DNA from: Bdellovibrionota bacterium
GTDB taxonomy: Bacteria; Bdellovibrionota_C; UBA2361; JBGSMV01
Length of the DNA: 64,000 nt
Assembly: GCA_041739995.1 (NCBI GenBank)
Contig: JBGSMV010000080.1
Coordinates: 34,738 to 98,737, forward strand
Direction: 5' to 3'
Position numbers and translations under genes: made by a program
Part shown: positions 506 to 39,879 of the stretch, one piece after another
Numbering within the stretch: the first letter of the stretch is position 1
Layout: every line of letters starts with the position of its first letter
The notes under the pieces: model-generated
The model's input: only the letters and a program-made list of their open reading frames with translations
Databases searched by the model: none
Told to the model about the DNA's origin: nothing

Positions 506-506
506 T

Positions 507-1846: not shown

Positions 1847-1863
1847 TCGGGAGTTAGAAGTCA

Positions 1864-2592: not shown

Positions 2593-2613
2593 GGTGACCC
2601 ACGCTTTGTAGCG

Positions 2614-4287
2614 CTATAGTGCTTTTAACACCGCGTCAATCCCTAGCCTATCGTAGTAACCCGCGATCCGTTCTGAGCCCTGCCTACTTTTTGAACCTTG
2701 AACGACTGCGTGAAAATCACTGACTGCTTCATGACCTTCTGCAGAATCTGGCGCAACGCGTAATAGCAATCCGCCTGCGGCATAACGAGCAATGCGGCTT
2801 CTCGATTGCGCCACACGACGAAGTCGATCAATCGCATATGCTTCATGGGTACGGTGCAGAAGGAGCTGCAACGCAAGATGACACTCAAGAATCGGGAGTT
2901 CGTCAACAAGCATGCAGTATTTCTGGAGCACCTTCTCAAATTCGCCAAATTGAAATTGCGGTTGCTGAAAATTACGGCGAATAGAAGAAAGCATGCTCTC
3001 GATCCAGAGATCGCGCGCCACGGTGAAAACGCTCAGATCCCACGTGAATGCGGGTATGACAGGTGCTATCGAAAGATCGTATCGAGCTTGGTGTTCTGTT
3101 CTCACCACACTTGCCACCAATGCGTAGCGGTTCAGCACACTTTGAGAATTGGCACTTCTCCACCGCTCTGCTCTTCCAGAGGTTGCTGCAGAATTTGGGT
3201 AGGCAGTCGCCTTTGCGCGTTCCGAGTTGCTCACCGCGGATTGAATAGCTTCGTCGCCTCGTTCGATCTCAAGAAACGACACTAAGCCACGCACCGCCCG
3301 TAGCGCACGATCGGGGTCCGTAAGATCCTCAAAGTAGAGGTGCATCAGATTGTCAGTGGGAACGCAGACTTCGAGAAATGTCTCTACCAAGAGCCACTCT
3401 TCAATCGTCGCCTGTCCAAAGATTCCTTCGCCGCCGTTCGTGGGAAGGTCAAGAACGTCATCCACACAAATCTCAGTCGTGTTTGATTGCAGGTTATTCT
3501 GTTTCGAAATACACACGTCACGTGGATCGCGAACGATTCGAACATGCTTCTTTCCGCTAAAGATCGCGGGCGAGAGGCTATGGGAAAACTGTGCCCCTAC
3601 ATCAACTTCGAAGGAGAAGTCCCGCCGACCACCCTGACGGACGACTATCGGCAAACAACTCGTCAGCCATTCGTGATGCTGCTCAAGCAGCCGAAAACTT
3701 CCTGCATGGAAGCGGAACATATCGTGAAAGCGTCCAAAATAGGTACATATTCCCAATTCTAGGAGCAAGTTCCATGTCTTATAAGTGCCACTGCACTCCA
3801 TGGACGAGAATTGAACCTCGCGAAGAAACGCACCATCGGCTACTCCCTCTGAGACTAAACAGATGCCATAAAGCGCCGACGAATTGAGGATAACTTTTGC
3901 CGGATGAAAGTCAGGGCGCAGTTCTATGAGTTTCTGGAGCAGAAGAGGTCCAAGATTGGGTTCGCCCGCGGAGCAAGCAGCCTGCGCCGCGTACCACAGA
4001 ATGCGCATCCCGGGGAAACCCATCTCGAGCGCCTTTATGAGATGCCCAAGTGCGACGGAAAATTCTCTCGCGCGGTAGGCGAGAACTCCAAGCCAGAATG
4101 GTCCGAATGGATCAGCGGGGTGTTGAACCGAGAAGAGTTGTGCCGCCGATCGGATCTCGGCAAGGTCTGCGTTTTCCCCTAGCTGACTATCTTCAACCGC
4201 AAAGATGCGTGAGCTTTCAACATTTCGGCTATGACGAAAGTGCTCAAGGTATTGTCCAAAGATGTCCAAACCAGACTGGTCTGTCAC
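2614..4287 (-). CDS. Sulfotransferase-domain protein with an N-terminal helical-repeat region
   Basis: VRIVRDPRDVCIS resembles the 3'-phosphate-binding RDPRD motif of sulfotransferases. LYFEDLTDPDRALRAVRGLVSFLEI matches the typical C-terminal Y-E-D-L-x-x-P...FLG sulfotransferase segment. 557 aa. Confidence 0.5.
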   Translation of the reverse strand: MTDQSGLDIFGQYLEHFRHSRNVESSRIFAVEDSQLGENADLAEIRSAAQLFSVQHPADPFGPFWLGVLAYRAREFSVALGHLIKALEMGFPGMRILWYAAQAACSAGEPNLGPLLLQKLIELRPDFHPAKVILNSSALYGICLVSEGVADGAFLREVQFSSMECSGTYKTWNLLLELGICTYFGRFHDMFRFHAGSFRLLEQHHEWLTSCLPIVVRQGGRRDFSFEVDVGAQFSHSLSPAIFSGKKHVRIVRDPRDVCISKQNNLQSNTTEICVDDVLDLPTNGGEGIFGQATIEEWLLVETFLEVCVPTDNLMHLYFEDLTDPDRALRAVRGLVSFLEIERGDEAIQSAVSNSERAKATAYPNSAATSGRAERWRSANSQSVLNRYALVASVVRTEHQARYDLSIAPVIPAFTWDLSVFTVARDLWIESMLSSIRRNFQQPQFQFGEFEKVLQKYCMLVDELPILECHLALQLLLHRTHEAYAIDRLRRVAQSRSRIARYAAGGLLLRVAPDSAEGHEAVSDFHAVVQGSKSRQGSERIAGYYDRLGIDAVLKAL

Positions 4288-4422
4288 GGTATCCGCCTAT
4301 AGCGAAGTGTAATCACGCAGCAATGCTGAACCCTTCCAATCTATAATGAAGCTTGCAGAATCGCGCCAGCAAAAGTGATATAGCATCGAGACAGAGGACG
4401 AACTCTCAGACCGTCGCTAGAG

Positions 4423-5124
4423 TTAAGATGAAATACTCAATATCTTGATGATTTTAATGTTCCACAGCAACTGTAGACCATTCGTATTCATACGAACGCC
4501 GTCCACTGCAGCAGTCCAAGAGCGCAGCTTGTTCTCCTTGGCCGGAATATCAAATGGCATCACCTGTTCGTCTACGTCGCAGCGCCACCCCAGCTCAGCA
4601 AGCCTCGCACAGAAGAGACCGAGAGGATACTGGTTGAACCCCGTGTGCCACTCACTGCTCCCCACACGCCGGTATTTGAGGGCGACCTCGAAATCGAAGT
4701 CATTAAAAACTCCAGTGATTACTGCGAGACCGCCCGGTCGCACATGGCGCAGGATATTCAAGGCAACGGGGATGGGGTCAGTCCAATACGAGAGAAGCGA
4801 TGTCGCGGTGACAAGATCAAATTTCTCGGAAAGACTGAAGCTTTCGGCATCGCCTACTTGAAACTCGATTTTCTGCGCTTCAAACCGTTTTTTTGCGCTC
4901 GCGATTAGCTCCTCCCCAATATCAACTCCTACTTTTCTCCCCGTAGGGAATACACTCTGGGAGAGGTGTGCGAGCAGTTCCCCGCTCGCACATCCAACAT
5001 CGAGACAGGATACCCCTTTGGCCACGTCGAAATGCGCGGTGGCAATCGAACTAATCCGTTTGAAGAGATCTTTAACTTCGAAGTGCGCGTCGTCTTGAAC
5101 ATGAAAATTGGAGGGGTTTGTCAT
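4423..5124 (-). CDS. Class I SAM-dependent methyltransferase
   Basis: Motif I CLDVGCASGELLAHL. The start was moved to internal Met (MTNPSNF) because the longer N-terminal extension in the ORF track is low-complexity. Confidence 0.6.
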   Translation of the reverse strand: MTNPSNFHVQDDAHFEVKDLFKRISSIATAHFDVAKGVSCLDVGCASGELLAHLSQSVFPTGRKVGVDIGEELIASAKKRFEAQKIEFQVGDAESFSLSEKFDLVTATSLLSYWTDPIPVALNILRHVRPGGLAVITGVFNDFDFEVALKYRRVGSSEWHTGFNQYPLGLFCARLAELGWRCDVDEQVMPFDIPAKENKLRSWTAAVDGVRMNTNGLQLLWNIKIIKILSISS

Positions 5125-5325
5125 AGCGGTCCATGAACTAGTTGCTGATCCAGTCAAAGAGAGAAGACTTGGGCTGTGGGGAGCTAACCGGTTTGTACAC
5201 AACCCATGGTGCAGCTACCCAAAAATACTCATAATTTCGCGAATCCTTGGTCATTTTCGCAGACTCGAAACATAGAGAGTAGTGGTACGTTTAGTGAATA
5301 GTATCAATTAGGTACATGGATTCCG

Positions 5326-7533
5326 ATGTCTCAGACTAGAGTACTGTTCTACGTTCCCTATGGGGGCTGGACTGTCCACAACCAGGTGGAAGCCGCTATC
5401 GCTTCCGCGCTCAGGGTTCGGGGCGCCGAAGTTATGGTGGTTGGGTGCGACGGCCTATTCTCGGAACGTTGTTATATTCTTAGTGGTTCTAAAACACCCG
5501 AAGCCGACTGCGCCCATTGCACAAAAACTGGGGTAGATTTTTTTGGAGCATTTCAATTACCGCTAGTGCAACTACGCTCGGCCCTCCAAAAGGGCGACTA
5601 CGATGGGATCGATAGCTGGCTGAACGATCAGGATCCTGCGCACTTCCCCGAGCTCACTTTTGAGGAGATTCCTGTTGGTAAACTGACTTCACCAGCAGTA
5701 TGTGGGTTTCATACGATAGGTCCCACCCTGCTCCGAGAAGCCGACCCGCAGTACACGCATCGGCTTTATCTGAAATATTGGCTGCTCACCTATGCCGGAC
5801 TCAATCGAATATTCGAACAATTCAAACCAACTCACACGGTCATTTTCCACGGAGCTGGTTTCTCGCATTCAGCAGCACTTTCACTTTCGAAAAAACGTGG
5901 GGTACCGATAGTCACGCATGAGAAGGGCTGGGTACCTCGTTCCTTCCTGATGGCGATCGATGAAACCGTGATAGGACCTTATTCGCGCGCAAAGTCTTCA
6001 CGAGCCTGGCTTCCGTACCCCTTATCTGCAGAGGAGGTGAAAAAGGCAGGGGAACTCTTTACCGACTGGGAGGAAGGCAAGAATAGGGTCACCGGACGAT
6101 TCTTTTCCTATTCAACCGATCCTACTCGCCTGCGGGAGCATCTTGGAATCCCCTCCGATGCCAGAATTTTCTCCGTCTTTACCACCAGCGAGCATGAGAT
6201 CCTTTATCTGGATGAATGGGGAATCTTACATGAACAAGTTCTGATGATTGAGCGTCTCGCCGAGATATTTCGTTCGAGAAAAGAATACTTAGTTATCCGT
6301 CACCACCCAAACGTCTGTAACCCTCTTCATCCAGGTCCCGACTCAGATTACCTCGAGAGGCTGCTCGCACTTTCGCAGCGACTTCCCTCAAATGTGCGAA
6401 TGATCATGCCGTATGAGTCGGTAAATTCTTACAGCCTCCTCTGGCATAGCGACGCCACTTTCTCGACAATCTCCACCATTGGTCTTGAAGCCGTCGCTCG
6501 CGGCATTCCGAGCGCTTCGCTTTCATGTTCAAGTTTCAGCGCTTCGATGCAAATGACTCTCGAATCGCTCGAACCTTCCGACCTCGAAAGAATGGTCAAC
6601 GATCTCCTATCGACACCTCTGAGCGCCTCTCTCGAGCAAATAGCGAAGGCCTATCGCGTCCTTTTCACGCAGATGTTTAGGTTTCCCCTTACCTTTAAAA
6701 CCATTGGTGTCGACGAGAACCGGAGGCCTGAGATTAAGATTGAATCTGTAGAGCAACTTCTACCTGGTGCAGATCCGGTGATGGATCGAGTATGCGACTA
6801 TTTCCTGAGGGGAACTTCTCTGCATGAGATTCCAGGTGACAACGCGCAAAATCGTAACGAGCATGATGAACGAAACGCTCTCGCCGAGGAGCGCGAGCGC
6901 TTCGTGCAGGCACGCGCGTTAGCTCGCGGGTCAGCACAAACTCAGGCGCCGCTCCCACTTTCAATGGCCGTGGTACTCGCTCGATACACCGATGGAGAGG
7001 CTCAGCAGCCGTGGTGGCTGGGCCGCCAAAGGACTAAACAATACCGCTTCTATCCCGCACAAGTACCCTCTCACGCTGACTGGCGAGAGCAGCTGATCTC
7101 GTTACAAAGAGTTATTATGGAACGCGAGGAAGCGCTTGTACTACCGGCACACCCGTCTTGCGAGTATGATGAATGCTTGATGCAATCGTCAAGCGAAGCC
7201 ATAAGCTGCTCCGAGCGTCACATTGACGCGGTGCTTTGGGGAGCATGGCTGTATGATAAGAATTCAAAGTTGATTAGCGGGGCCTATACTCCCTACCACA
7301 AAGTGAGTTCGTGGGAGGAACTCCTTAAGCATATGCCACAACTTGGAACGGTTACTGGGCAGCTAGGCCTGGGAGTATTCAGACGTGATTTTTTAGTGAG
7401 ACTCCTCTCTGAGATGGGCGCTGCGAAGAACGAGCAGGTTGCTGCCTTTGAACTATTTAGACTGCTCTCGGGAGATGCTGTACTTCGGCTCGAACAACCA
7501 ATGGTGTTTTATAAACAGGATCTCCAGGGATGA
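5326..7533 (+). CDS. Large 735-aa hypothetical protein. A central region resembles the C-terminal GT-B-like half of capsule-polysaccharide (KpsC/KpsS, beta-Kdo transferase) family proteins, making it a candidate CMP-ulosonic-acid transferase
   Basis: Long ORF in the operon with ATGA overlap to the downstream SDR. Segments HHPNV...PYESVNSYSLLWHSDATFSTISTIGLEAVARGIP resemble the Capsule_synth/TagF-like donor-binding half. The N-terminus VLFYVPYGGW...GAEV is Rossmann-like. The family assignment is from memory only. Confidence 0.4.
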   Translation: MSQTRVLFYVPYGGWTVHNQVEAAIASALRVRGAEVMVVGCDGLFSERCYILSGSKTPEADCAHCTKTGVDFFGAFQLPLVQLRSALQKGDYDGIDSWLNDQDPAHFPELTFEEIPVGKLTSPAVCGFHTIGPTLLREADPQYTHRLYLKYWLLTYAGLNRIFEQFKPTHTVIFHGAGFSHSAALSLSKKRGVPIVTHEKGWVPRSFLMAIDETVIGPYSRAKSSRAWLPYPLSAEEVKKAGELFTDWEEGKNRVTGRFFSYSTDPTRLREHLGIPSDARIFSVFTTSEHEILYLDEWGILHEQVLMIERLAEIFRSRKEYLVIRHHPNVCNPLHPGPDSDYLERLLALSQRLPSNVRMIMPYESVNSYSLLWHSDATFSTISTIGLEAVARGIPSASLSCSSFSASMQMTLESLEPSDLERMVNDLLSTPLSASLEQIAKAYRVLFTQMFRFPLTFKTIGVDENRRPEIKIESVEQLLPGADPVMDRVCDYFLRGTSLHEIPGDNAQNRNEHDERNALAEERERFVQARALARGSAQTQAPLPLSMAVVLARYTDGEAQQPWWLGRQRTKQYRFYPAQVPSHADWREQLISLQRVIMEREEALVLPAHPSCEYDECLMQSSSEAISCSERHIDAVLWGAWLYDKNSKLISGAYTPYHKVSSWEELLKHMPQLGTVTGQLGLGVFRRDFLVRLLSEMGAAKNEQVAAFELFRLLSGDAVLRLEQPMVFYKQDLQG

Positions 7534-14600: not shown

Positions 14601-15358
14601 CATACGACCCGGAAACGGTTCGGCAGGAATACTGTTGCGGAGTGCTTCTTCCGACCGACGAGTATACTACGTCGATCACCAATTTCCCTGGGGGAAATTG
14701 CTTTCCCTACTGGGACACAAAAGGCGATTTCTTTTTGTCCTGCTCTATTTTTTCTGACGGCAAGCGTCATGCAGTCGTACATTCAAAGCACTGCAACGAG
14801 AAGGGTTATCTAGAGGTCCACATCGACCATGCCACACAGTTCTCCGAAAAGCCGTTGAGTGGATTGGTGCTTATTGAACTTACTCTCCCGAAGAAGGTTC
14901 CCGTCGACCTCTACACCGCGCATGTACATAAAAAAACGGGCATCTACGTTTCGTACCCTTCTGGTCATTTCGTCGGAGATACGCTCTACACTGCCACACG
15001 CGCCCGCGAGCTATTCAATACCGGCTTTTGGCCTGGATTAGTGAGCAGCGATACCGCTGAGACTTCTGTTATCTTAATGAACCCCTACAAAATTCCGTTC
15101 TCGTATCAACTGTCGCTCTTTCTCCCTGATGGTCGAAAACTTCAAACGGACGTAATGAAAGTACTCCCCTTTCGCTTCCAGATACATGCGATTGAAGAAA
15201 CATTCCCTGAAGTCAAAAACTTGAGTGTAGAAGATAGGGAATGCTGCTCTATATGCATTTCTTCACAGTATAATCTTGTCGGATACGTCATGATTAAAGA
15301 CAGAGGCACCGGCGCATTCACGTCGATTGACCACCTCCACCCTTATGTTTTGATCTAG
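14579..15358 (+). CDS. Hypothetical protein (259 aa)
   Basis: Long ORF in the same operon orientation that overlaps the upstream gene end. No family recognised. Confidence 0.4.
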   Translation: MDVQPPLAYDPETVRQEYCCGVLLPTDEYTTSITNFPGGNCFPYWDTKGDFFLSCSIFSDGKRHAVVHSKHCNEKGYLEVHIDHATQFSEKPLSGLVLIELTLPKKVPVDLYTAHVHKKTGIYVSYPSGHFVGDTLYTATRARELFNTGFWPGLVSSDTAETSVILMNPYKIPFSYQLSLFLPDGRKLQTDVMKVLPFRFQIHAIEETFPEVKNLSVEDRECCSICISSQYNLVGYVMIKDRGTGAFTSIDHLHPYVLI

Positions 15359-15360
15359 CC

Positions 15361-15807
15361 ATGAGTAGCTTTAGGACAACCCAACATCAAACATCTCTCC
15401 CCAGCGGCGCCAGAATCGCCGTCGATGTAATCGAGGTGCTGAGCGATGAGAACTGCCGCACCCCCTCTTTTGGTCAGGTGCTCAACAGCGAATTAGCGCT
15501 TAATCAAGGTGAGGTGGTGATACTTACCACTTCTTGGGATTCGGTCAGGGCCGAGGCAGAGAAGTCCCTACCACTACTTACCACCTCACCGTCCGTGCGT
15601 GCTGTTCTTAAATATCAAGCGCCATGGTTTGCGACATTTACTCGCCAGGCCCTTCAAAGCTCAGGAAACTTTCCGAACGAGATAACTCTGGAAGATGCGC
15701 TGTCGCTTTTCGTACAGCGTGCAAAGTTACGTCGAGAATTCTCATTTATTGAGCTGACCGATCCCATCAAATTCTCAAAAAGCGAGATGAAGATGGGAGG
15801 ACCCTGA
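15361..15807 (+). CDS. Hypothetical protein (148 aa)
   Basis: ORF immediately following (3-nt gap) in the same operon. No family recognised. Confidence 0.4.
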   Translation: MSSFRTTQHQTSLPSGARIAVDVIEVLSDENCRTPSFGQVLNSELALNQGEVVILTTSWDSVRAEAEKSLPLLTTSPSVRAVLKYQAPWFATFTRQALQSSGNFPNEITLEDALSLFVQRAKLRREFSFIELTDPIKFSKSEMKMGGP

Positions 15808-16051
15808 TAGAGAGGACAGGATGTCCGACCGCGGACTGGAGCAAAGCGTAAGTACGCGAAGTGACGTGGATTTCGCGCCGCTCGTCGCGCGAAAGGAGCT
15901 TGGAGCGAGTGAAAAAGTGCCAAGGAGGGCATTTTTTCACCAGCCTGCTAGTGGGTTTCGCTGTCGCACTTCCTATTTAACAACTTGATTCTGAATCGCG
16001 GCACGAAACTCGAGCAAACGTTGGGCCTTCAAGCCTTTCCCATGTTGACCA

Positions 16052-16798
16052 CTAGGACGAGCACTGCCTCTTGCTTTTATTTACCAAGAACTCCGCGAAC
16101 TCAAAATCAAGCGGAGAATCAATATCTAGTGCCCTTTCACGGGGAACCACTACGGCCTTCGTTTTCCCTGCGAACAGTCCAGCATTCTGCAACACAAATT
16201 CTGGCCTCGTCGCATAGGCCACCGTCGTTATATCAAATACTTCGGGAGCCTCCTGCCGCCTACTATGACGGCCTTCAGAGGGTATCACTACGCGCGCATA
16301 TCCTTCGGAATCAAGTGCCACCATATTGTAGTACGGATTTCTCGCTGCGGGGGTAACCGTTAACACCAGGTCGGCATCGCTTGTGCTAAGAAGTCGAAGA
16401 CATGCCTCGATATCCACAAGAGATCGTAGCGGCGAGGTAGTTGGAATGGTCAGCAGCGTATCGAATTGGTCACCACCACGGGTAAGCTCCTCAATTGCGT
16501 GCCGCCACACCAACCACTCAGGAGAATCATCTTGAGCAAGACGTGAGGGGCGCATGAAAGGGACTTCGGCACCAAAGCTTTGAGCAATTTGTGCAATCTC
16601 TTGATCCTCCGTACTCACTACCACTCGCGAAACAAGATCACTTTTCAATGCAAGTTCTATGGCATAACCAATGAGCGGACGGCCTGCCAGGAGCTTTATA
16701 TTCTTTCGCGGCACTCCCTTAGAACCACCACGCGCACAGATTAGAGCTATAGTTCGTGGCTTAGCGATATTTTGGTCGACCATAGCTGCACTACACAA
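16052..16798 (-). CDS. neuA: Acylneuraminate cytidylyltransferase family (CMP-nonulosonic acid synthetase, NeuA/LegF-like)
   Basis: N-terminal IALICARGGSKGVPRKN is the CMP-NeuAc synthetase signature. 248 aa. Confidence 0.8.
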   Translation of the reverse strand: MCSAAMVDQNIAKPRTIALICARGGSKGVPRKNIKLLAGRPLIGYAIELALKSDLVSRVVVSTEDQEIAQIAQSFGAEVPFMRPSRLAQDDSPEWLVWRHAIEELTRGGDQFDTLLTIPTTSPLRSLVDIEACLRLLSTSDADLVLTVTPAARNPYYNMVALDSEGYARVVIPSEGRHSRRQEAPEVFDITTVAYATRPEFVLQNAGLFAGKTKAVVVPRERALDIDSPLDFEFAEFLVNKSKRQCSS

Positions 16799-21362: not shown

Positions 21363-22343
21363 CTAGGAGAAATGGGGGTGCCCCTGCCTCGCTTTTGCCT
21401 CGTAGGCTTGAGACATTTCGTCAAGAACGTTCAATGTTTTCTTACTCAATCCCTTCGCAAGCGCTTCTCGTCGATCGGTACGGCCCGAGGAAGGCTCTTT
21501 GCCCGGTAATTTTTCCCTCTTCTTAATCATCTCCATCGAAGGGAGGACAGGCTGCTGTAAGAACTTGGCCAAACGATCAACCTCAGCATCAGGAGAAACA
21601 ACCAAATCTTCGTATCGCAATTGAAAGACTTTCTCCTTCTCTGATGCCGCAAGCCGGGTCCATCGATCTTCCGAACGCTGAGCAATGGTGGCGATCGACC
21701 GAACAACTCGCTCCTCGGCCGAAACATCTGCATAGTCCTCAGCCCAATCTAAGGCGAACCAAGGCACCAACCCCTTCCCCTTTTTGAACGGAATGACGAA
21801 GCCCTTAGGGTCCGTTCCCCAGCGCCCACCCCAACCACGCTGCAACCAAGAAAAACAAAGATCCAAGGGGTGCCGATCTAAACGCACGACTCGAAGCTCC
21901 GGAAGGAAAGAGAAGAACAGATCGATGAAGGGGAGAACTTCGTGCATCACATAGGGGAGATAAGGAGGGTCCGATTGAAGCTTTGCCATGACCTCGGTGT
22001 CGTCCGAGCTTAAGCAGCGCTGGAGGTAGTCAGCAAAACGAGGCGACTGAACAACCGAAGATTTGTCCGATAGTCTGAAGTTCAGACCTCGACCAACCAT
22101 TAAATCATACGCGGTGTTGTCGAACTGAACTTGCAACAGAGAAGTCGCCGTTTCCCTTGAAATTTTTCCGAACGACTCAAGGAACGGGACATGCTCAAAA
22201 ATACTGTGGTATTGAAAGTGCTCAACATTCGAGATACCTGACAGCACGTTGGACACGAGAAACTTTCCGGAGCGAGTAACTCCTTCTACGAATAATATGC
22301 GCTCCACCAACCGAGCGCGATCTCCTAGCGGATAAGATTTCAT
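21363..22343 (-). CDS. Sulfotransferase family protein
   Basis: GVTRSGKFLV (5'-PSB-like), RLDRHPLD (3'-PB-like RxxRxPxD) and LRYEDLVVSPDAEVDRLAKFL (the typical C-terminal YEDL...FLG segment). Confidence 0.55.
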   Translation of the reverse strand: MKSYPLGDRARLVERILFVEGVTRSGKFLVSNVLSGISNVEHFQYHSIFEHVPFLESFGKISRETATSLLQVQFDNTAYDLMVGRGLNFRLSDKSSVVQSPRFADYLQRCLSSDDTEVMAKLQSDPPYLPYVMHEVLPFIDLFFSFLPELRVVRLDRHPLDLCFSWLQRGWGGRWGTDPKGFVIPFKKGKGLVPWFALDWAEDYADVSAEERVVRSIATIAQRSEDRWTRLAASEKEKVFQLRYEDLVVSPDAEVDRLAKFLQQPVLPSMEMIKKREKLPGKEPSSGRTDRREALAKGLSKKTLNVLDEMSQAYEAKARQGHPHFS

Positions 22344-22352
22344 AGATTCTAA

Positions 22353-24620
22353 CTATTCAGTAAAGACTTTGCGGCCAATAGCTATTTCGGAAAGCAAATA
22401 ATTGGAAATTTCAGGCCTCACCAACCATTCAGGCGGTCGCTCTCCTTTCAAGAGACTGGAACGCAGCTCGGTGCCACTAAGCGCCATAAACGATTCCTCG
22501 GCAGAGGTTCGTTCGCCATAAGCACCTTTCGCTGCCAAATACCCCACTTCGTCAAAAAATATTGGCTTAATGTCAAGATCAGGAAACTCTTCGAATATGC
22601 GCCGTGCTGCGTCCTTTGCGTAGAACGACCCCACTCCCGCATGGTCCCTTCCCACAATGAAGTGAGAACACCCAAAATTCTGCCGACAGAGCGCCGTGAA
22701 TACTGCCTCTCTTGGTCCTGCAAATCGCGAATATGAAGCAAAAGTGGAGAATAAGACCTTGTTCTCTGGGTAGTGCGCCCGCAAAAGAATCGAGTACGCA
22801 CGAATAATTGCCTCTGCTTCAAAGTCGCCCGCCTTTCGTTGGCCCACCACTGGATGGATAAATAGGCCATCACACTCCCCACGTATCATCGCCTCGTGAT
22901 GAAGATACTCATGGGAGCGATGAGGTACGTTGCGCGAATGAAATCCTACTACTCGAGTCCAACCGCGACTCTCGAAAATCTTGCGGACTTGAAGCGGTGT
23001 AAGTTCGAAATTCTTTTGCTTCGCAGGAGGTCTACTAAAAAGTGATACTCTGCCGGCCACCGAAAAGCTTCCCCCGCCGAGTATTCGAGCAACCCCCGGG
23101 TGTTTAGAATCAACGGTGCCAAACCAATCACGACAGAGGTCCTCTACCTTAAGTGGGAAGACCTCTGAAACATGCAACAGCCCAAACGGGACTTGATCTC
23201 CCTCCGATACCAACTTAATCACTGGGGCGCTGCCAAAACTCCGTGCCCGCGCTTCCTCTACCTGAAGAAGGATCGGCATCGGCCAAATCTTCCCACCCGG
23301 AAGACGCTTATTTGCCAGAACCGAAGCGAGCTCTTCGGGCCCCATGAACCCTTGAAGTGGACTATAGGTGCCGATAGCGAGCTGCTCAGCGTCCATCGCT
23401 TGCTCGATACGAAGCTCCAACGCCGGAAGTGACGCCAAATAATCCTGGGGAGGAGGTCTCTGTAAAAGTCTATCGACGAGCTGTCCTCCGTGTGGACGAA
23501 TAAGGCTGGCACCTACCGTGGGGCTAGTTAAAAATTTCGAGCGCTCGAGAACTTGTATCAGTTCTTGAGTGCCTCCTCTCATTTCATCAGTCGAACCAAG
23601 GAAGAACAGAGTCTGCTTCCCTACGGTTTGAATTAAATTGATAGCCTCAATCGGGTGCTTCCCGACCGCTGTCTCAGCTGCCAAGACCAAGCCATCTGCG
23701 CCGTCGACAAGCGTATTAACGATATCATTGATCTCGGCCCGACTGGGCTTGAGACTGGCCATCATAGTGTCTAAGAAATTGGTGGCAACAAATACGGGTA
23801 TGCGCTTACCGTTTGCTCGATGGATGATAATCTTTTGCGCAAACGCTACCCTTTCAAGAGGGACTTCTCGGCTAAGATCTCCTCGATCAATCAGGATGCC
23901 ATCGGAGCAATCAAGTATTGAATCTAGGTTCTCTACCGCTCGCTTGGTCTCAATTTTACTGATTACAGTTGCCTCAGGGTAGAGCTCTCGCACTTCCTGA
24001 ACGTCTTCACGAGAGTTGACAAAGGAAAGGTTGAGAAGCGTAATTCCGTGTCTACGAGAAATTTCTATCGCTGCTCTATCCTTCTCACTCAGCGCCGGCA
24101 GTTGAAACTGCTGGTTCTCTACAGAGACCGCTTTATTGTTACCAACGTCTCCTCCCGTAATTACAGTGCACTCCACGTAACCAGCACCACTCAGGTCCGT
24201 GAGGCTGTCGACTCGTAGAATAGCAGTGTCAAAGTCAACGAATATAAGGTCACCAACTCTCAGACTTGCGACCGCTTCCGCCGGCCTCAGAAACAACTGA
24301 CTTGAGCTGCACTTGACGGCCTTACGGTATAGGCGCAGCGAATCTCCAGTGCGAAGAGCTACCTTGGCGACCCCTAGGTCCCCGGTACGAATCTGGCACC
24401 CTTCGGTGTCAACAATGATAGGTGTAGAGATCTCGTTTCTTATCGCGCGGATCGTTGTTTCGAGATCTTCGATCTTGGTATGTGACAAATTGATACGCAC
24501 ATAATCCACATCCCTAGCCGCGATTTTGCGAAGCATTTCCGCTGAAGACGTAGAGGGTCCCAAAGTGACGATGAGCTGCATTGCTCCGCCCTTCTCGCTC
24601 CGAACCGGTAACTTCGCCAT
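22353..24620 (-). CDS. sat: Fusion protein with an N-terminal pyruvate-kinase-like barrel domain and a C-terminal sulfate adenylyltransferase (ATP sulfurylase)
   Basis: The N-terminal ~330 aa align colinearly with pyruvate kinase (LIVTLGPSTSS...RINLSH; IIVDTEG; ISKIETKRAVENLD...ILIDRGDL; VATNFLDTMM...PSRAE). The C-terminal ~380 aa carry the ATP-sulfurylase motifs VVGFHSRNVPHRSHE (QTRN-HxxH-like) and GRDHAGVG. It is a single uninterrupted ORF. I preferred the start at MAKLP (AAGGAG 6 nt upstream), and the alternative MQLIV at 24581 also has a GGAG. Confidence 0.75.
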   Translation of the reverse strand: MAKLPVRSEKGGAMQLIVTLGPSTSSAEMLRKIAARDVDYVRINLSHTKIEDLETTIRAIRNEISTPIIVDTEGCQIRTGDLGVAKVALRTGDSLRLYRKAVKCSSSQLFLRPAEAVASLRVGDLIFVDFDTAILRVDSLTDLSGAGYVECTVITGGDVGNNKAVSVENQQFQLPALSEKDRAAIEISRRHGITLLNLSFVNSREDVQEVRELYPEATVISKIETKRAVENLDSILDCSDGILIDRGDLSREVPLERVAFAQKIIIHRANGKRIPVFVATNFLDTMMASLKPSRAEINDIVNTLVDGADGLVLAAETAVGKHPIEAINLIQTVGKQTLFFLGSTDEMRGGTQELIQVLERSKFLTSPTVGASLIRPHGGQLVDRLLQRPPPQDYLASLPALELRIEQAMDAEQLAIGTYSPLQGFMGPEELASVLANKRLPGGKIWPMPILLQVEEARARSFGSAPVIKLVSEGDQVPFGLLHVSEVFPLKVEDLCRDWFGTVDSKHPGVARILGGGSFSVAGRVSLFSRPPAKQKNFELTPLQVRKIFESRGWTRVVGFHSRNVPHRSHEYLHHEAMIRGECDGLFIHPVVGQRKAGDFEAEAIIRAYSILLRAHYPENKVLFSTFASYSRFAGPREAVFTALCRQNFGCSHFIVGRDHAGVGSFYAKDAARRIFEEFPDLDIKPIFFDEVGYLAAKGAYGERTSAEESFMALSGTELRSSLLKGERPPEWLVRPEISNYLLSEIAIGRKVFTE

Positions 24621-24716
24621 ATCTCTCCTTCTCTCGCCTACCGCATGGAAACATGCCACGCCCGAACAAGAGAGCGCCTTAACATGATGCCTCAATGAAA
24701 GTGTGTTTGAAAGTGG

Positions 24717-25994
24717 CTATGGAGCAGGTGTTAGTGTCAGCAAGGGCTCCCGCTGACGAGCGACTCCAAGCCAAAGCGCGGCAAGCACCGAAGTAACCAC
24801 AGCGCTCAGAATCAAAGTGCAGGCGAACTCAGATGAAATAGCCCCTGCGGCAAGCGCCGTGGTCGCAAGCACAATCCCGGGCCCCCCACGTGCATTCATG
24901 CACACTCCGAAAGTAATGGCAGTAGAGGTACTCAACCCGTTAAAACGGGCACTCACAAATGCACCAATTATCTTTAGGGCGCTGGTCGCAAAGAGGAACA
25001 GAACAAACTGTGACAGTATGAAGTTCTCGCCAAGATGAAGGTTGAGCCCAACAAGAAAGAAGTAGACTGGCGCAAAATAAGCCATCACTATTTCTCGAAA
25101 GTGCTCGTGGGCCCGTTGCACACTTGCTTGGTCACAGGCTCGCGCTCCGATGCCGCCAAAAAATGCTCCGATGGATGGGTCAATACCTCCAAGGCGGGCG
25201 GCGGCTGCACACACCAGGCAAGCGATAATCAGAATGCTTAGAGGCGCAGGCTCAGGGGCATCTTGTTGAGTTGCCGATGAAATAGCACGATGAATACGGG
25301 AGCGCAGTTTGAGCACTTGGGCCAACAGCCTGGGCACCAAAAAAGGAAAGAGAAATACGAACACCAAGAAGGGCGCTCGAAATAGCATATCCATCCAGGT
25401 TGTCTCTGCTGCACCTGCTTGAATGGAGAAAGCCACGGCCAGCACTGCCTAAAGTAGGAGATCCTCTAACGTCGCGGTCGCAAGCACAATTCGTGCAAAC
25501 CGCGTCTGAAGGATTCCAAGATCCATAAAGATTCTGGTGATGACAGGGATTGATGTCACGGAGGCGGCTATAGCAATCATCAATAGCAACGAGACAGGGT
25601 CGCACTTCACTCCGCATAGAGTCTGATAATCAAGCGCGGGGACGATGAGCAATGCGGCCATAAAGGGAAGCACCGCGCTTCCGATCGCGAGTCCAAAGAT
25701 CGTCTTACCCTCCTTTCCAATCGATTTTCGACCTATTTCAAATCCGGCAACAAACATCAAAAGCACTGTACCGAGAGCACTCAGCAGAATAAAAACTGGG
25801 TTGGACTGAGCATTCTCCCCCCACAATATGCGGTGAGCTCCTGGAATCAATCGACCTAAGATATCTGTCCCAAGCAAAACGCCGGCGAAGATCTCACCAA
25901 CCACTCTTGGAATGCGCACCAGCTGGCACAACTGCCCAAGCCCTAACGCCACCGCAATCGCCACAGCCAGGGTGATGAACACGTCACCTACCAT
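24717..25994 (-). pseudogene. Cation/proton antiporter (Na_H_exchanger/CPA family) interrupted by a single in-frame TAG stop. It may be a pseudogene, a sequencing error or a read-through
   Basis: Two adjacent ORFs (25449..26090 and 24717..25445) lie in the same frame, separated only by the TAG at 25449-25451. Both halves are polytopic with CPA-like motifs (GEIFAGVLLG...; ...GGIGARA...), and together they are ~425 aa, a normal antiporter length. Confidence 0.55.
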
Positions 25995-26991
25995 CCGCCC
26001 CCCTGAGTGAAGACAGAATAACTTTTTCTCCGCTCTCACTTGCTTGCCTGCACGCAGCGATAAGGCGCAGTGTTTGAACTCCTTCGGCAAACGTGACCAG
26101 CGGATTCTCAGCGCCCTGAGCGCATTGAAGAAAGTGTCTCATTTCTTCTAGATACATCTGATTTTTATCAAGTAACGCGGGCGAATAGACTTGTTTTGTT
26201 GCTCCGTTAGCGAGCACCGTTACTATGTGCGAGATCCCATCCCACACAAGCGTCCCTTCCGACCCCACCACTCGACAGACTCGCGTTGGGTGACGCTGAA
26301 TCATATCAAGGTGGACTTGCACTCGCAGGCCACTTCCAAACTCGGCAATCAAGTTGACACAGTCCTCTACATCAATATCGAAGGTGCCTGATTTCCACGC
26401 GATCCCTTGAACCGCATGGACGTCTCCGAATAACCATTGAATATAGTCAAGCTCGTGACTGAGCTCCAGTAGTGCCCCTCCCCCAAGCTTGGCTATGGCA
26501 CTTGCTGATTTTGTATAGTCCTTACCGGGCCTCCAATCGGGAAGATATTGGCCAACTTCGGCCGAAGCGCAGACAAGCTTTCCAACAATGCCCTGCTCAA
26601 GAGATCGCTTGAATGCTCGCAATGAACTTGAGAATCGAAGGTGATACCCAACTAAGCAGATAGCCTCGCAACGCTCCAGGATTTTCGAAACTTCTGATAT
26701 CCCTTCATCGGAATGCGAAAGCGGTTTCTCCACTAAGGTGTGAATGCCGGCAGACAGTAATTCCTTTAAATAGGCAAGATGGGTACTGGAAGGCGAAGCG
26801 ATGATTGCGCCATGCAAGGGGGCGGTCAGCGCTTCAGCGATTGAGCTAACTGACTGGTCAGCAAACTCGATACTACCAACACTTCGCACCGAGGGCAGTA
26901 CAAGTATATGAGCCGCTGGAACCAAGGCCCTAAGATTATTCGCGTGACGTCGCGCGATGTTTCCGGCGCCCACTATCAGAAACCGAGACAA
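25984..26991 (-). CDS. Gfo/Idh/MocA-family NAD(P)-dependent oxidoreductase
   Basis: N-terminal Rossmann MSRFLIVGAGNIARRH and the ...EKPL... motif (LVEKPLS). 335 aa. Confidence 0.8.
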   Translation of the reverse strand: MSRFLIVGAGNIARRHANNLRALVPAAHILVLPSVRSVGSIEFADQSVSSIAEALTAPLHGAIIASPSSTHLAYLKELLSAGIHTLVEKPLSHSDEGISEVSKILERCEAICLVGYHLRFSSSLRAFKRSLEQGIVGKLVCASAEVGQYLPDWRPGKDYTKSASAIAKLGGGALLELSHELDYIQWLFGDVHAVQGIAWKSGTFDIDVEDCVNLIAEFGSGLRVQVHLDMIQRHPTRVCRVVGSEGTLVWDGISHIVTVLANGATKQVYSPALLDKNQMYLEEMRHFLQCAQGAENPLVTFAEGVQTLRLIAACRQASESGEKVILSSLRGADGR

Positions 26992-36098: not shown

Positions 36099-37433
36099 AT
36101 GCACTCGAATCTTGGCACGAACGGCTCTCCAAAGTCCCCCGCTCAGAAACTTCCGCCCTGGTCTCAAAATATCTCTGCCGCTCTTCCCTCAATTCCCAAT
36201 GATTCACCACGGTCAGACGAAACTCCTCTCGAATCCGAGAAAAGTCTTGGCTTCGCTGAACATGTGGTCGCAAAGAGCTCAATACCCTCACAGACCGAAA
36301 TTGCTGATTATTTGGCAATTTCTAAAAAGATTGCGACCTCTACAAAGGTGTCTTCTCAAGAACTTGTTGATTCAACTCGTGCTGCCTTCGAAATGCGGTC
36401 GCGCCTCAGTGGTGATTCTGGTTCCGGCGGAATCGCACTATTGGAACTAAGACAAGGATGGGCGAAACAAGTGGCTGAAGCTCTCCCTCAGATCACCACC
36501 TCCATCGAAATGATGTATCAAGAAGCGCCTTCAAAGGTGATTGAGGCCATAGCTAACGATTTTCTTTCCAGGATCAATGAACGCGCTCCCAATCTCGCAG
36601 AACCGCACTCCGCAAGTGCGATCAGCTCTTGTCTTGAACAGACCAGACTCATGGTCATTTTCGCAGGCAGAGCACTGAAGAGTGAAGACCATGTTCAGAG
36701 CGCTCTCTCAGGCCTTCAGGAACGCTCCTTTGTCAGTGATGGCTCCCAAACTCCCGCCGCGAATGCAAAGGAAAAAAGTGCCGAAGATCGGCGCTCTTCT
36801 TTCGAATCACGACAAGCTCAGAAAGCCGCGCAGAGTGCTGCTAAAAAGGCAGCGCTTCAAGCAGGTCAAGCGCTTCCCGTAAAAGATGCTCCTCCGCCAA
36901 TAGTAAAAGACGATGAGAAATCCGAACTGCTTGCCTCCACCGCCGCCCAACACCGAGGGAACTTTGACGATGCTCGTCCCAGCGACCAACAAAAACACTT
37001 GCTTCGACAGCGCGGACAAAAGGAGCTCGAGCGCACACTCGCCGACCGCCTTCGTAGCCCTAAAGGAGCGGAGCGAGAGAAGGAACTGGAAACTACCAGA
37101 ATTGAACTGACTAATGTGTTGGCAACCAGACTCAAAGACTGGTTCTCGACTGAGATTCAGCTGGGAAAGCATCTTGGGAAGTCGGCGATCGGCCCAGCTG
37201 ATATTTCAAAGGATGTGCACTCAGCAAATGCTCGGCGTGCGGAGATCGAGACTCACCTGTCTGCCATCAAGGCTCTTCATCAGCAGATAGAAGCTGATCT
37301 TCGACGCTCTGCGCGTGTTGCTGAGACTCATAAAGACAAGCTTGTAGGCGCATTCAGCCTCCAAGAATTTAAGCTCTTAGACGAGATCTTGAACCCGCCT
37401 AAGCCAAAAGAGACCTTCGAACTGGCGGATTGA
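36099..37433 (+). CDS. Hypothetical 444-aa low-complexity, charged, coiled-coil-like protein with no signal peptide
   Basis: Long ORF biased to Ala/Lys/Glu/Ser/Gln with predicted long helices and no recognisable domain. Confidence 0.4.
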   Translation: MHSNLGTNGSPKSPAQKLPPWSQNISAALPSIPNDSPRSDETPLESEKSLGFAEHVVAKSSIPSQTEIADYLAISKKIATSTKVSSQELVDSTRAAFEMRSRLSGDSGSGGIALLELRQGWAKQVAEALPQITTSIEMMYQEAPSKVIEAIANDFLSRINERAPNLAEPHSASAISSCLEQTRLMVIFAGRALKSEDHVQSALSGLQERSFVSDGSQTPAANAKEKSAEDRRSSFESRQAQKAAQSAAKKAALQAGQALPVKDAPPPIVKDDEKSELLASTAAQHRGNFDDARPSDQQKHLLRQRGQKELERTLADRLRSPKGAEREKELETTRIELTNVLATRLKDWFSTEIQLGKHLGKSAIGPADISKDVHSANARRAEIETHLSAIKALHQQIEADLRRSARVAETHKDKLVGAFSLQEFKLLDEILNPPKPKETFELAD

Positions 37434-37471: not shown

Positions 37472-38380
37472 TCAGACTGCCACCGGGTGCCAGGTCGTCT
37501 TTATCTCAAGCATGCTTTCGAGCTCAGTAAGGGAGTCTGCCTGAGCCGACTGGGCAACTACCCGCTTAAGATTCTCACCGCCAAGAGCTCGTACCAAGGC
37601 AATATCATCCCTCTCTTCGCGGGGAAGACAAACCGCACCGATATCCATGTGAGAACCAAGTGGAGTTAATAGCTCATCTTTGAGACCAGAGAGCAGATTA
37701 ACCACTCCCGCAGGAACATCTGAGGAAGCGAGCACTTCAGCGAAGCTAAGTCCCACGGTAGCGCTGCGCTCAGAGAGCAGCACTATCACTGCGTTTCCCG
37801 CGCACACTGCCGGTGCAAGTGCACGTACAAGCCCAAGAAGTGCGGATGATTCAGGGGCTACGACCCCCACCACTCCAATCGGTTCAGCGCAAGAGAAGTT
37901 GAAGAAATTTCCCGCTACAGGATTGATGCTCCCAAGCACTTGCTGGAACTTGTCGGCCCATCCTGCATAGTGGACAATACAATCAATCGCCGCACCTGTC
38001 TCAGCAATCGCCTGCTTCTTCGTCGCCCCGAGCAAGATTAACTCTTTCTCGAACTGGTCTCGACGGCTCTCAAGCATCTCAGCCATTCGATAAATTATCT
38101 GCGCTCGATTGTAGGCCGTGCGGCTCTTCCACACAGCGAACCCTTTATGCGCAGCAACCACCGCGTTCCGAATATCCTTACGGGTTCCTCTACACACATG
38201 CGCGACTAATTTCTGCTTAGATCCGACAACTGGGTACTCGCGTTCTGATTCGGAGCGCACGAATGCCCCGCCAATGTACATCTTGTAAGTCTTTAGGACC
38301 GGGACACGCCCGTTCGCTTCAGCCATAGAGGACTTGTGCTGCACCTTCCCGTTACTCGAAGTATCGCGCTTTGTGCTCAT
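37472..38380 (-). CDS. Aldehyde-dehydrogenase-like protein truncated to the N-terminal/NAD-binding portion. It has no catalytic Cys segment and is 302 aa
   Basis: ALDH-like blocks (YKMYIGGAFV; IVHYAGWADK; PIGVVGVVAP) are present but the catalytic domain is absent. It overlaps the upstream full-length ALDH by 4 nt. Confidence 0.55.
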   Translation of the reverse strand: MSTKRDTSSNGKVQHKSSMAEANGRVPVLKTYKMYIGGAFVRSESEREYPVVGSKQKLVAHVCRGTRKDIRNAVVAAHKGFAVWKSRTAYNRAQIIYRMAEMLESRRDQFEKELILLGATKKQAIAETGAAIDCIVHYAGWADKFQQVLGSINPVAGNFFNFSCAEPIGVVGVVAPESSALLGLVRALAPAVCAGNAVIVLLSERSATVGLSFAEVLASSDVPAGVVNLLSGLKDELLTPLGSHMDIGAVCLPREERDDIALVRALGGENLKRVVAQSAQADSLTELESMLEIKTTWHPVAV

Positions 38381-39879
38381 GAACTTGCTCCAATCGACAG
38401 GTAAGGCAACAGCCCGTGCAGTCCGCCCTCTCTACCAAACCCGCTCTCCTTTACTCCTCCAAACGGAGAAGAAGGGTCAAACTTATTGTAGGTGTTAGCC
38501 CACATCACACCCGCATCAATCTGAGAGGTAACCTTAAAAATCTTCGAGCCCTTGTCGGTCCAAACGCCGCCAGAAAGTCCGTAGCGGGTGTTGTTTGCTT
38601 TCTCAATTCCTTCTTCCGGAGTGCGAAAGGTTTGAACCGTCAATACGGGTCCAAAAATCTCTTCCTGCACAATTCGAAAGGATTGTGAGACCTCGGTGAA
38701 AACTGCAGGCGCGCACCAATATCCTTTACCTGGCAGGACAGCGGAGCTCTGAAAAAGTTCTGCGCCTTCGCTTTTTCCAATCTGAAGATACTCTTGGATT
38801 CGTTCCAGCTGAGATTTCGAATTAATGGCCCCTATGTCCGTGTTTTTGTCGAGCGGATCACCCACTCGCAGCGTGGCGATACGGTCTTTAAGTTTTCGAA
38901 TTACTTGTTTGGCAACTGATTCCTGAACCAGCAAACGGGAACCCGCACAGCAAACGTGTCCTTGGTTAAAGAAAATGCCGTTCACAATTCCTTCAACCGC
39001 CTGGTCGATGGCCGCATCCTCAAATATTAGATGCGCAGCTTTGCCACCCAGCTCAAGCGTTATCTTGGCCGAACGCTGCGCATTCGCGGCCAAAATCAAC
39101 TTCCCGACTTCGGTTGACCCGGTAAACGCAATTTTATCTACGCCCTTAGCTTTCACCAAAGACGCTCCAGTATCACCGCCACCAGTTATAATATTCACCA
39201 CTCCGGGCGGCAGATCAGCTTCTTGAATAATTTGGGCCAGCAGTAAAGCGGTGAGAGGTGTGGTCTCCGCGGGCTTTAGTACTACCGTGTTACCCGTAGC
39301 GAGAGCGGGCGCGATTTTCCAAGCAGCCATCAACAGCGGAAAGTTCCAAGGAATAATTTGAGCAGCCACTCCAAGCGGCTTGGCGTCTCTTCCCTTTAGC
39401 GCGTAGCGCAACTTGTCAGCCCAGCCTGCATAGTAGAAAAAATGTGCGGCGCTTAGTGGAATATCAACACTTTTTGATTCGCGTATCGGCTTGCCGCCGT
39501 TCATGGATTCGACAATCGATAATGTGCGCGCCTGTTCTTGAATGAGTCTGGCAATACGAAACAGGTACTTGCCACGTTCGAGGCCCGATAACTTTGACCA
39601 GTACTTAGTATGTGCGCGTCGCGCGGTGTCGACTGCATGAGCGACATCTTTCTCGCCCGCATCCGGAACGCGCGAAAGAAGTTGCTCATTGGCAGGATTG
39701 ATGACTTGCCGATACTTGCGCGAGATGGGTTTTGTAAATTTTCCACCAATAAACAGATCGTAGGATTTTTCTATTGAAACATGCTCATGCGCTTCAGGTG
39801 CGGGCGCATACTCGAAAGGCAAGTCTTTCCCGGTACGAAAGTCCAAGGGAGCTGGTGAAGTCATGGGGGTCTGCCGCAT
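38377..39879 (-). CDS. NAD(P)-dependent aldehyde dehydrogenase
   Basis: FTGSTEVGKLI, the ELGGK(A) Glu motif and FNQGHVCCAGSRLLVQ with the catalytic Cys. 500 aa. Confidence 0.85.
   Translation of the reverse strand: MRQTPMTSPAPLDFRTGKDLPFEYAPAPEAHEHVSIEKSYDLFIGGKFTKPISRKYRQVINPANEQLLSRVPDAGEKDVAHAVDTARRAHTKYWSKLSGLERGKYLFRIARLIQEQARTLSIVESMNGGKPIRESKSVDIPLSAAHFFYYAGWADKLRYALKGRDAKPLGVAAQIIPWNFPLLMAAWKIAPALATGNTVVLKPAETTPLTALLLAQIIQEADLPPGVVNIITGGGDTGASLVKAKGVDKIAFTGSTEVGKLILAANAQRSAKITLELGGKAAHLIFEDAAIDQAVEGIVNGIFFNQGHVCCAGSRLLVQESVAKQVIRKLKDRIATLRVGDPLDKNTDIGAINSKSQLERIQEYLQIGKSEGAELFQSSAVLPGKGYWCAPAVFTEVSQSFRIVQEEIFGPVLTVQTFRTPEEGIEKANNTRYGLSGGVWTDKGSKIFKVTSQIDAGVMWANTYNKFDPSSPFGGVKESGFGREGGLHGLLPYLSIGASS

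Follow-up and report, generated by a model that had tools for sequence, protein, structure and literature searches.

A pyruvate kinase fused to ATP sulfurylase in surface-glycan loci: a candidate phosphoenolpyruvate-driven module for sulfate activation

What would a cell gain from a pyruvate kinase (PK) joined to an ATP sulfurylase (Sat)? The question is raised by one gene in a stretch of 64,000 nucleotides (nt), here called the window, from a Bdellovibrionota bacterium (assembly GCA_041739995.1, contig JBGSMV010000080.1, positions 34,738 to 98,737), in which a single reading frame encodes both enzymes as modules of one protein. In our judgement the fusion is probably, though far from certainly, an ATP-regenerating and ADP-scavenging module that is driven by phosphoenolpyruvate (PEP) and built into the synthesis of 3'-phosphoadenosine 5'-phosphosulfate (PAPS). 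ATP regeneration from PEP had been proposed by a first, sequence-only reading of this DNA, and it is the best supported explanation, by conserved residues, by neighbouring genes for adenosine 5'-phosphosulfate (APS) kinase, by independent fusions of the two enzymes and by the need for PK and PEP in vitro; its further suggestion, that the ATP is channelled into sulfate activation, found no support.

The fusion gene and its two active sites

The gene lies on the minus strand, in an open reading frame (ORF) that runs without interruption over 22353..24695 and gives 780 amino acids (aa) when counted from its first TTG, as in the ORF listing. The probable true start is the ATG at 24620, directly preceded by GAGAAGGAGAGAT, a good ribosome-binding site with AGGAG at about 24627-24632; from this ATG the protein has 755 aa (coding positions 22356..24620, stop codon 22353..22355), with no internal stop. 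One unbroken frame of 750-780 aa at 22353-24620 was what the sequence-only reading had described, and correctly so. A protein identical to the query is present at NCBI (P0001). The parts of the gene are as follows, with aa positions of the 755-aa protein and, in brackets, those of the 780-aa frame.

22353..24620, minus strand: complete PK-Sat fusion gene, 755 aa plus stop, with the ribosome-binding site AGGAG 5' of the ATG
23640..24578, minus strand: PK A (TIM barrel) and B (lid) domains, aa 15-327 (40-352), PF00224, E 2.9e-68
24480..24500, minus strand: PK active-site motif VRINLSH
24387..24410, minus strand: PK active-site motif DTEGCQIR, with the monovalent-cation site
23946..23960, minus strand: PK active-site motif SKIET
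23874..23888, minus strand: PK active-site motif DRGDL
23502..23639, minus strand: inter-module linker of about 46 aa, aa 328-373, with low AlphaFold confidence at about aa 340-375
23034..23501, minus strand: PUA_2 domain, aa 374-529 (399-554), PF14306, E 7.7e-36, aligning to Protein Data Bank (PDB) entries 8a8d and 1v47
22392..23012, minus strand: ATP-sulfurylase catalytic domain, aa 537-743 (562-768), PF01747, E 2.6e-71; PDB 8a8d, E 3.9e-85
22929..22943, minus strand: Sat motif FHSRN, a variant of QXRN
22911..22922, minus strand: Sat motif HRSH (HXXH)
22629..22652, minus strand: Sat motif GRDHAGVG

The AlphaFold2 model of the whole protein has a pLDDT of 88.7 and a pTM of 0.85, the linker being its low-confidence part. 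No chain in the PDB spans both the PK and the Sat halves, and with the fusion model as query the best Foldseek match has a TM-score, normalised to the query, of 0.47. In the Pfam search the window's fusion protein shows no APS kinase domain (PF01583).

The N-terminal ~330 aa had been read as colinear with PK, and profile, sequence and structure comparisons agree. The PF00224 match spans profile positions 5-328 of 328, so that the TIM barrel A and the inserted lid B are both there; the N-terminal half aligns with residues 5-350 of Escherichia coli PykF (E 1.5e-55, with 34% identity in the PK domain), and Foldseek superposes it on the A and B domains of PykF over 337 columns with a root-mean-square deviation (rmsd) of 2.8. 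The NCBIfam pyruvate kinase model TIGR01064 matches with E 2.4e-83 over profile positions 4-337 of 476 only, and its score of 280.3 bits stays below the cut-off of 306.4 because the C domain of PK is missing. Pfam finds no match in the fusion protein to PF02887 (PK_C), the C-terminal allosteric and tetramerisation domain, an absence that would fit an unregulated helper enzyme better than a flux-controlling glycolytic PK. Grouping with HpcH aldolase or PEP mutase, raised earlier as a possibility that would undo the PK assignment, is not borne out by these matches: HpcH/HpaI aldolase or PEP mutase was rejected for the N-terminal half, the sole trace being a match to rhamnonate aldolase (E 0.0087, 15.6 bits).

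Conservation of the PK residues was followed in an alignment of 120 fusion proteins with PykF, whose numbering is used here. The PEP-phosphate arginine R32, the catalytic lysine K220, the proton-donor threonine T278, the Mg2+ ligands E222 and D246, and E314 are shared by the query and no fewer than 117 of the 120 homologues, and the ADP/ATP-phosphate ligands R73 and K156 in the query and in 119. The K+-site residues N34, S36, D66 and T67, together with H37 and G245, are likewise kept in at least 117. At a mutual identity of only about 45%, such conservation is a clear signature that indicates a presumably working active site, and the residues concerned point to a nucleoside diphosphate as the likely acceptor. 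Changes that mark the family relative to PykF are K68E (114/120), E71Q (118/120), Q279N (118/120), S312A/T (110/120) and K317I/V (118/120). Owing to K68E and E71Q, the cation site reads T113/E114/Q117 in rabbit-muscle numbering, in the query and in 114-118 of the 120 homologues. The signatures described in the literature are T113/K114/E117 for K+-dependent and L113/Q114/K117 for K+-independent PKs (PMC8835810, PMC4284704, PMC5501398). The combination found here fits neither of the two as given there, and the cation dependence of the family is therefore not predictable from those rules. An alignment to PK structures, with attention to the metal and PEP ligands, had been proposed as a check on the sequence-only reading; it returned the residues for PEP, Mg2+, the ADP phosphates and catalysis, and N34, S36, D66 and T67, but T/E/Q in place of the canonical K+ signature.

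The C-terminal half contains the HXXH and GRDHAGVG motifs that had been attributed to it (22911..22922 and 22629..22652). PUA_2 is the usual N-terminal domain of homo-oligomeric ATP sulfurylases, and among solved structures this half is closest to two ATP sulfurylases, one from Methanothermococcus thermolithotrophicus (8a8d, E 3.9e-85) and one from Thermus thermophilus (1v47); superposed on 8a8d by Foldseek, the fusion model gives a TMt of 0.92 and an rmsd of 2.3. HXXH (H567, H570) and GRDH are invariant in all 120 fusion proteins. The QXRN motif reads H-T/S-R-N in 119 of them, with R and N kept. Of ten close standalone Sat relatives that were examined (375-424 aa), nine also have FHTRN, so HXRN is a marker of the clade and is not specific to the fusion. 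In the yeast enzyme the Gln of QXRN touches the sulfate of APS (PMC6607087). The NCBIfam sulfate adenylyltransferase model NF003166 matches with E 1.9e-108 (score 362.4, cut-off 387), and TIGR00339 scores 298.2 against a cut-off of 322.95. Except for QXRN changed to HXRN, the Sat core thus has the features expected of an ordinary member of the homo-oligomeric ATP sulfurylases. Since both active sites are kept at 43-54% identity, the PK and the Sat modules both appear to be under purifying selection.

Distribution and genomic neighbourhoods of the family

A database search for the PK plus ATP-sulfurylase architecture had also been proposed, and it was productive. The protein search, based on a word index, returned at least 120 clusters at 90% identity, all with the order PK, PUA_2, ATP-sulfurylase; P0001 equals the query, and the others share 43-54% identity with it. 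The query is covered to 96-100% by 119 of the 120 listed proteins and to 87% by the remaining one (P0034, 657 aa), and in seven of the 120 an APS kinase domain follows at the C-terminus. With each GTDB species represented by one genome, a scan gave 561 relatives. The best 80 loci were examined; all are full-length fusions, and all come from metagenome-assembled or single-amplified genomes of uncultured lineages. Identity to the query is 41-54% when protein clusters and species genomes are taken together, and at most 46% for the genome-scan loci. Among these best 80 of 561, the fusion occurs in DPANN archaea (Woese-, Pace- and Nanoarchaeia), in the candidate phyla radiation (CPR)/Patescibacteria (Komeili-, Falkow-, Magasanik- and Harrisonbacteria, Saccharibacteria, Parcubacteria), in Omnitrophota, Chloroflexota, Gemmatimonadota, Planctomycetota, Acidobacteriota and Actinomycetota, and in several proteobacterial classes, Bdellovibrionales and Victivallales.

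An exhaustive HMMER search of 1.84 billion representatives, with clustering at 50% identity, places several dozen such clusters in the family: among the best 150, a strict count on four motifs gives 46 and a hand count by length and aligned range about 70, both of which are lower bounds on the diversity of the family. The PK partner had been called unusual; relative to characterised enzymes it is, but the databases contain at least 120 clusters and 80 species genomes with this architecture, which makes it common there. Database names for the fusions are 'pyruvate kinase' at JGI and 'sulfate adenylyltransferase' or 'pyruvate kinase' at NCBI, and such automatic names may distort metabolic reconstructions, for instance by making glycolysis seem complete in reduced CPR and DPANN genomes. 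No description of a PK-Sat fusion was found in the full-text literature, subscription journals lying outside its coverage. The fusion is apparently abundant in sequence space and uncharacterised.

In the window, the fusion lies in a nonulosonic-acid and aminosugar locus, with genes for NeuB, a CMP-transferase, UDP-GlcNAc 2-epimerase, a DegT aminotransferase, epimerases of the SDR family, WbuX with a HisF/HisH amidotransferase, and methyltransferases. The placement in a sugar-tailoring locus next to a sulfotransferase, as first read from the sequence, was therefore accurate, the sulfotransferase gene being the next one downstream.

21363..22343, minus strand: sulfotransferase gene, 10 nt downstream of the fusion; Sulfotransfer_3 E 6.9e-09, Sulfotransfer_1 E 1.8e-06 (Pfam)

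Its product contains TRSGK (aa 23) and RYEDL (aa 243) and is the presumed consumer of the activated sulfate.

Homologous loci, 85 in all, were searched iteratively for APS kinase, sulfotransferase and CysQ, and six contexts were examined through called genes. The position of APS kinase relative to the fusion is as follows.

13 of 85 loci: fused to the C-terminus of the fusion
31 of 85 loci: adjacent on the same strand, in 29 of them directly downstream
10 of 85 loci: within 3 kb
31 of 85 loci: not found in the available flanks, 21 of these loci having at least 5 kb on both sides

In total, 54 of the 85 loci have a genuine APS kinase, either fused, adjacent or no more than 3 kb away. The two kinases checked in NCBIfam, one adjoining the fusion (L004) and one separated from it by one gene (L001), pass the apsK equivalog TIGR00455 with scores of 164.7 and 183.8 (cut-off 138.7) and fail PRK05541 with 105.5 and 108.1 (cut-off 127). 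With the sulfotransferases of the window, L004 and L005 and a 323-aa neighbour in L002 as seeds, sulfotransferase matches adjoin the fusion in 16 loci and lie up to 3 kb from it in another 11; the blastp cluster that holds the window's own sulfotransferase is represented in 11 loci and a second Sulfotransfer_1 family in nine. CysQ-like phosphatases of 3'-phosphoadenosine 5'-phosphate (PAP) occur in 12 loci, and at least one PAPS-pathway neighbour is present in 65 of the 85. Genes for APS kinase, sulfotransferase, CysQ and, next to one fusion, PAPS reductase lend indirect support to the predicted sulfurylase activity. Unbiased clustering of the neighbours within 4 kb showed that the rest belong to glycan biosynthesis (DegT, SDR epimerase/dehydratases, GT4, methyltransferases, NDP-sugar C-methyltransferases and the Wzx flippase). 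L002 is syntenic with the window, yet there an APS kinase follows the fusion. That the fusion sits in surface-glycan loci of DPANN, CPR, Omnitrophota and other uncultured lineages suggests that sulfation of glycans is widespread among them.

Some of these loci hold further gene arrangements. In L047, a single stop-to-stop ORF of 453 aa (14997..16355) combines APS kinase with Inositol_P (CysQ-like PAP phosphatase), and in L053 the ORF directly downstream of the fusion matches both APS kinase and sulfotransferase. In the DPANN loci L001 (8748..10004) and P0031, a gene of the Sulfatase/Phosphodiest family (alkaline-phosphatase superfamily) overlaps the start of PK-Sat; the same family forms the N-terminal part of the fusion P0174.

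PK and Sat are also joined in other ways. In P0193 (L088 1916..4093) the order is reversed (PUA_2, ATP-sulfurylase, PK); P0168 has a full PK (PK, PK_C, PUA_2, ATP-sulfurylase); and P0174 reads Phosphodiest, PK, PUA_2, ATP-sulfurylase. The PKs of P0193 and P0168 have the K+-independent signature L113/K117 and are 32-33% identical to the PK of the query, which is no closer than PykF (34%); fusion to Sat has thus occurred several times, in different PK lineages. Their common property is the chemistry of PK, and this speaks against a repurposing specific to one lineage. The reversed fusion P0193 adjoins an anion ABC transporter and a PAPS reductase, so the pairing of PK with Sat is not restricted to glycan sulfation. 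Short PKs with the DTEGxQ(I/V)R motif are also encoded on their own (330-403 aa), and in one case a sulfotransferase gene lies 4 kb away. Five further proteins are less complete: P0246 and P0236 combine PK with a partial ATP-sulfurylase-like domain, and P0244, P0258 and P0269 combine PK with a C-terminal region that has no family assignment.

Proposed role in PAPS synthesis and rival explanations

The Sat reaction is strongly unfavourable thermodynamically. The known answers to this uphill step are the pull exerted by APS kinase or pyrophosphatase, or GTP hydrolysis as in CysDN. In the known multidomain sulfate activators, Sat is joined to APS kinase or to an APS-kinase-like regulatory domain, and in some eukaryotes Sat is paired with a pyrophosphatase. 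If our proposal is right, PK-Sat would be a third strategy, in which PEP powers ATP regeneration and ADP removal within the sulfate-activation pathway.

In the proposed scheme, the N-terminal short PK, made of domains A and B only, would be catalytically competent and unregulated and would convert PEP and ADP to pyruvate and ATP. The C-terminal Sat module (PUA_2 plus catalytic domain) would convert ATP and sulfate to APS and pyrophosphate (PPi), and APS kinase, which for the window organism would come from a separate gene, would convert APS and ATP to PAPS and ADP. The ADP from APS kinase would be re-phosphorylated at once by the PK module. Local ATP would be kept high for the unfavourable sulfurylase step, and ADP would be kept low, allowing APS kinase to escape a dead-end enzyme-ADP-APS complex. 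The net reaction would be sulfate + ATP + PEP -> PAPS + PPi + pyruvate, and the PAPS would be used by the downstream sulfotransferase to give a sulfated surface glycan containing nonulosonic acid. In this scheme we infer the activities of the two modules, the direction in which flux runs, the use of ADP as phosphoryl acceptor, PAPS and not APS as the sulfotransferase's donor, and the identity of the sulfated product. A dependence of this kind is seen in vitro: when PAPS was synthesised with PAPSS1 without PK/PEP regeneration, ADP built up and PAPS was 'practically missing', a failure that the authors attributed to the dead-end APS kinase-ADP-APS complex (PMC9885120).

The arrangement can be compared with several known systems. 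In vitro cascades for PAPS also combine Sat, APS kinase and PK/PEP (PMC9885120); there separate enzymes are mixed by hand, whereas here PK is fused genetically. Like the Sat-APS kinase PAPS synthases (Aquifex aeolicus 2gks, human PAPSS1/2, Thiobacillus 3cr8), in which Sat is fused to a helper enzyme that pulls APS formation and provides PAPS for sulfotransferases, the fusion would couple Sat to an auxiliary activity. The partner here, however, is an N-terminal PK that would act on the ATP/ADP side and not on APS, and 13 of the 85 relatives are PK-Sat-APS kinase proteins; these triple fusions are candidates for PAPS biocatalysis by a single polypeptide. The PK module resembles E. coli PykF (1pky/8eq3) in its A and B domains and in its catalytic, Mg2+, PEP and ADP-phosphate residues, and differs from it in the lack of PK_C, in the cation site T113/E114/Q117, in the link to Sat and in a glycan locus in place of a glycolytic context. 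Coupling of an exergonic nucleotide reaction to endergonic APS formation is shared with CysDN and CysN-CysC (NCBIfam NF004035 describes the CysN/C type). CysD has a fold unrelated to Sat (PAPS-reductase-like), and its partner is the CysN GTPase; the coupling there is mechanistic and uses GTP hydrolysis, whereas the coupling proposed here would be by mass action on ATP/ADP through PEP. Fungal ATP sulfurylases (Saccharomyces cerevisiae 1g8f, Penicillium chrysogenum 1i2d/1m8p) also carry an extra enzyme-derived domain on a Sat core, but the fungal domain is dead and regulatory, whereas the PK module keeps the whole catalytic apparatus.

Several observations weigh against PEP-driven regeneration as the role of the fusion. 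ATP is the sole intermediate common to PK and Sat, and Sat releases PPi, not ADP; the logic of the pair therefore requires APS kinase. The iterative search found no APS kinase within 10 kb in 31 of the 85 loci, including the 21 with flanks of at least 5 kb on both sides, and the 64-kb window holds none that passes the apsK equivalog model of NCBIfam. At the window locus the favoured model is weakest in this respect, and the missing kinase is the chief support for a rival in which APS itself is phosphorylated by the PK domain. Fusion by itself is no proof of metabolite channelling. On the same side stand the unfamiliar K+-site combination T113/E114/Q117 with Q279N, S312A/T and K317I/V, the His that replaces the sulfate-contacting Gln of QXRN, and the scores of both halves, which fall slightly under the cut-offs of the curated full-length NCBIfam models.

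Among the other explanations, a housekeeping role is unlikely but deserves the first hearing: the PK module would serve glycolysis, perhaps as the sole PK where the genome is reduced, and its fusion to Sat would ensure co-expression and involve no specific kinetic coupling. The intact active site, the minimal metabolism of many carriers (CPR and DPANN) and the existence of standalone short PKs with DTEGxQ(I/V)R are all compatible with such a role. The loci, however, are devoted to glycan sulfation and not to glycolysis (65 of 85 with APS kinase, sulfotransferase or CysQ), the allosteric PK_C that a flux-controlling glycolytic PK should have is absent, and recurrent independent fusions of PK with Sat argue for a specific link between the two.

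Somewhat more doubtful still is a repurposing of the PK-like domain as a PEP-dependent kinase for another acceptor, chiefly the 3'-OH of APS, so that PAPS would be made from ATP, sulfate and PEP with no need for APS kinase. Transfer of phosphate to something other than ADP was the second proposal of the sequence-only reading. It would account for a window with no genuine APS kinase and for the 31 of 85 loci with none within 10 kb, and the family's substitutions around the K+ and nucleotide site (K68E, E71Q, Q279N, S312A/T, K317I/V) also speak for it; the missing kinase, however, could be encoded elsewhere in the genome. In the 54 loci where an APS kinase is part of the fusion or lies no more than 3 kb away, among them the PK-Sat-APS kinase triple fusions, a second such activity would be redundant, and there the PK residues are equally conserved. 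The residues for the ADP/ATP phosphates, R73 and K156, persist in 119 of 120 proteins, and canonical PK lineages, one with PK_C, have been fused to Sat independently. Retention of these residues and the fusion of ordinary PKs leave the repurposing disfavoured. A bolder form of it is very improbable in our view: the short PK with T113/E114/Q117 would be a PEP-dependent kinase on APS, or else be directly coupled to the Sat site, and in genomes that, like this one, have no genuine APS kinase close to the fusion, the protein of 755 aa would by itself act as a PEP-driven PAPS synthase. PAPS, the universal sulfate donor, would then have a new biosynthetic route.

We give just as little credit to a catalytically silent PK-like domain with a regulatory, scaffolding or oligomerisation role, for example as a sensor of PEP or ADP. 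The APS-kinase-like allosteric domain of fungal ATP sulfurylase in P. chrysogenum is a precedent, and the PK half does score under the TIGR01064 cut-off; the missing C domain accounts for that shortfall, however, and near-invariant catalytic and metal residues at ~45% identity would be unexpected in a silent domain. Finally, that adjacent PK and sat genes were joined by a sequencing, frameshift or assembly error is scarcely credible, as the frame is continuous, with neither frameshift nor stop at the junction where the sequence-only reading had thought one might be overlooked, and many projects have yielded the same junction, in no fewer than 120 protein clusters and 80 genomes.

The CysC-like gene and other features of the window

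The sole CysC-like gene of the 64-kb window lies at 507..1082, 21 kb from the fusion and on the opposite strand. It was brought up by tblastn and Pfam matches as a candidate for the pathway's APS kinase and was rejected: it fails TIGR00455 (103.3, cut-off 138.7), passes PRK05541 (161.9, cut-off 127) and has phosphoramidate-like neighbours. The genes around it are listed here.

20..505: C-terminus of a PRK05849-family protein with a PEP-utilizer mobile domain, continuing beyond the window edge
507..1082: CysC homologue
1079..1846: methyltransferase, clustered with the CysC homologue
1864..2592: NTP_transf_3 gene, clustered with the CysC homologue
2614..4287, minus strand: sulfotransferase-like protein of 557 aa, clustered with the CysC homologue
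4423..5202, minus strand: methyltransferase, clustered with the CysC homologue

This gene set (20..5202) is, we take it, that of the O-methyl phosphoramidate (MeOPN) pathway of Campylobacter jejuni, and we assume the PRK models to correspond to Cj1415 and Cj1418. The region therefore appears to be a cluster resembling the Campylobacter MeOPN pathway, to which the CysC-like gene would belong. In Campylobacter, Cj1415-Cj1418 make CDP-phosphoramidate 3'-phosphate (PMC11800397). The window thus probably contains no genuine APS kinase, and another part of the genome presumably encodes it.

A scan for promoters and terminators around the operon gave sites not above the level of shuffled sequence. 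Directly upstream of the fusion, a gene of the Na+/H+-exchanger family (24717..26090, minus strand) is broken by one in-frame TAG (25449..25451; LEDLLL*AVLAVAF), and could be a pseudogene, a sequencing error or a case of read-through. Large ORFs with no family match are found at 5326..7533 (plus strand, 735 aa; Pfam and NCBIfam) and 36099..37433 (plus strand, 444 aa; Pfam), and the ORF at 46454..48745 (minus strand, 763 aa) has no NCBIfam match at E <= 1e-10. On the minus strand, a full-length aldehyde dehydrogenase ORF (38377..39879, 500 aa) is directly followed downstream by a truncated one (37472..38380, 302 aa, profile positions 2-211 of 461).

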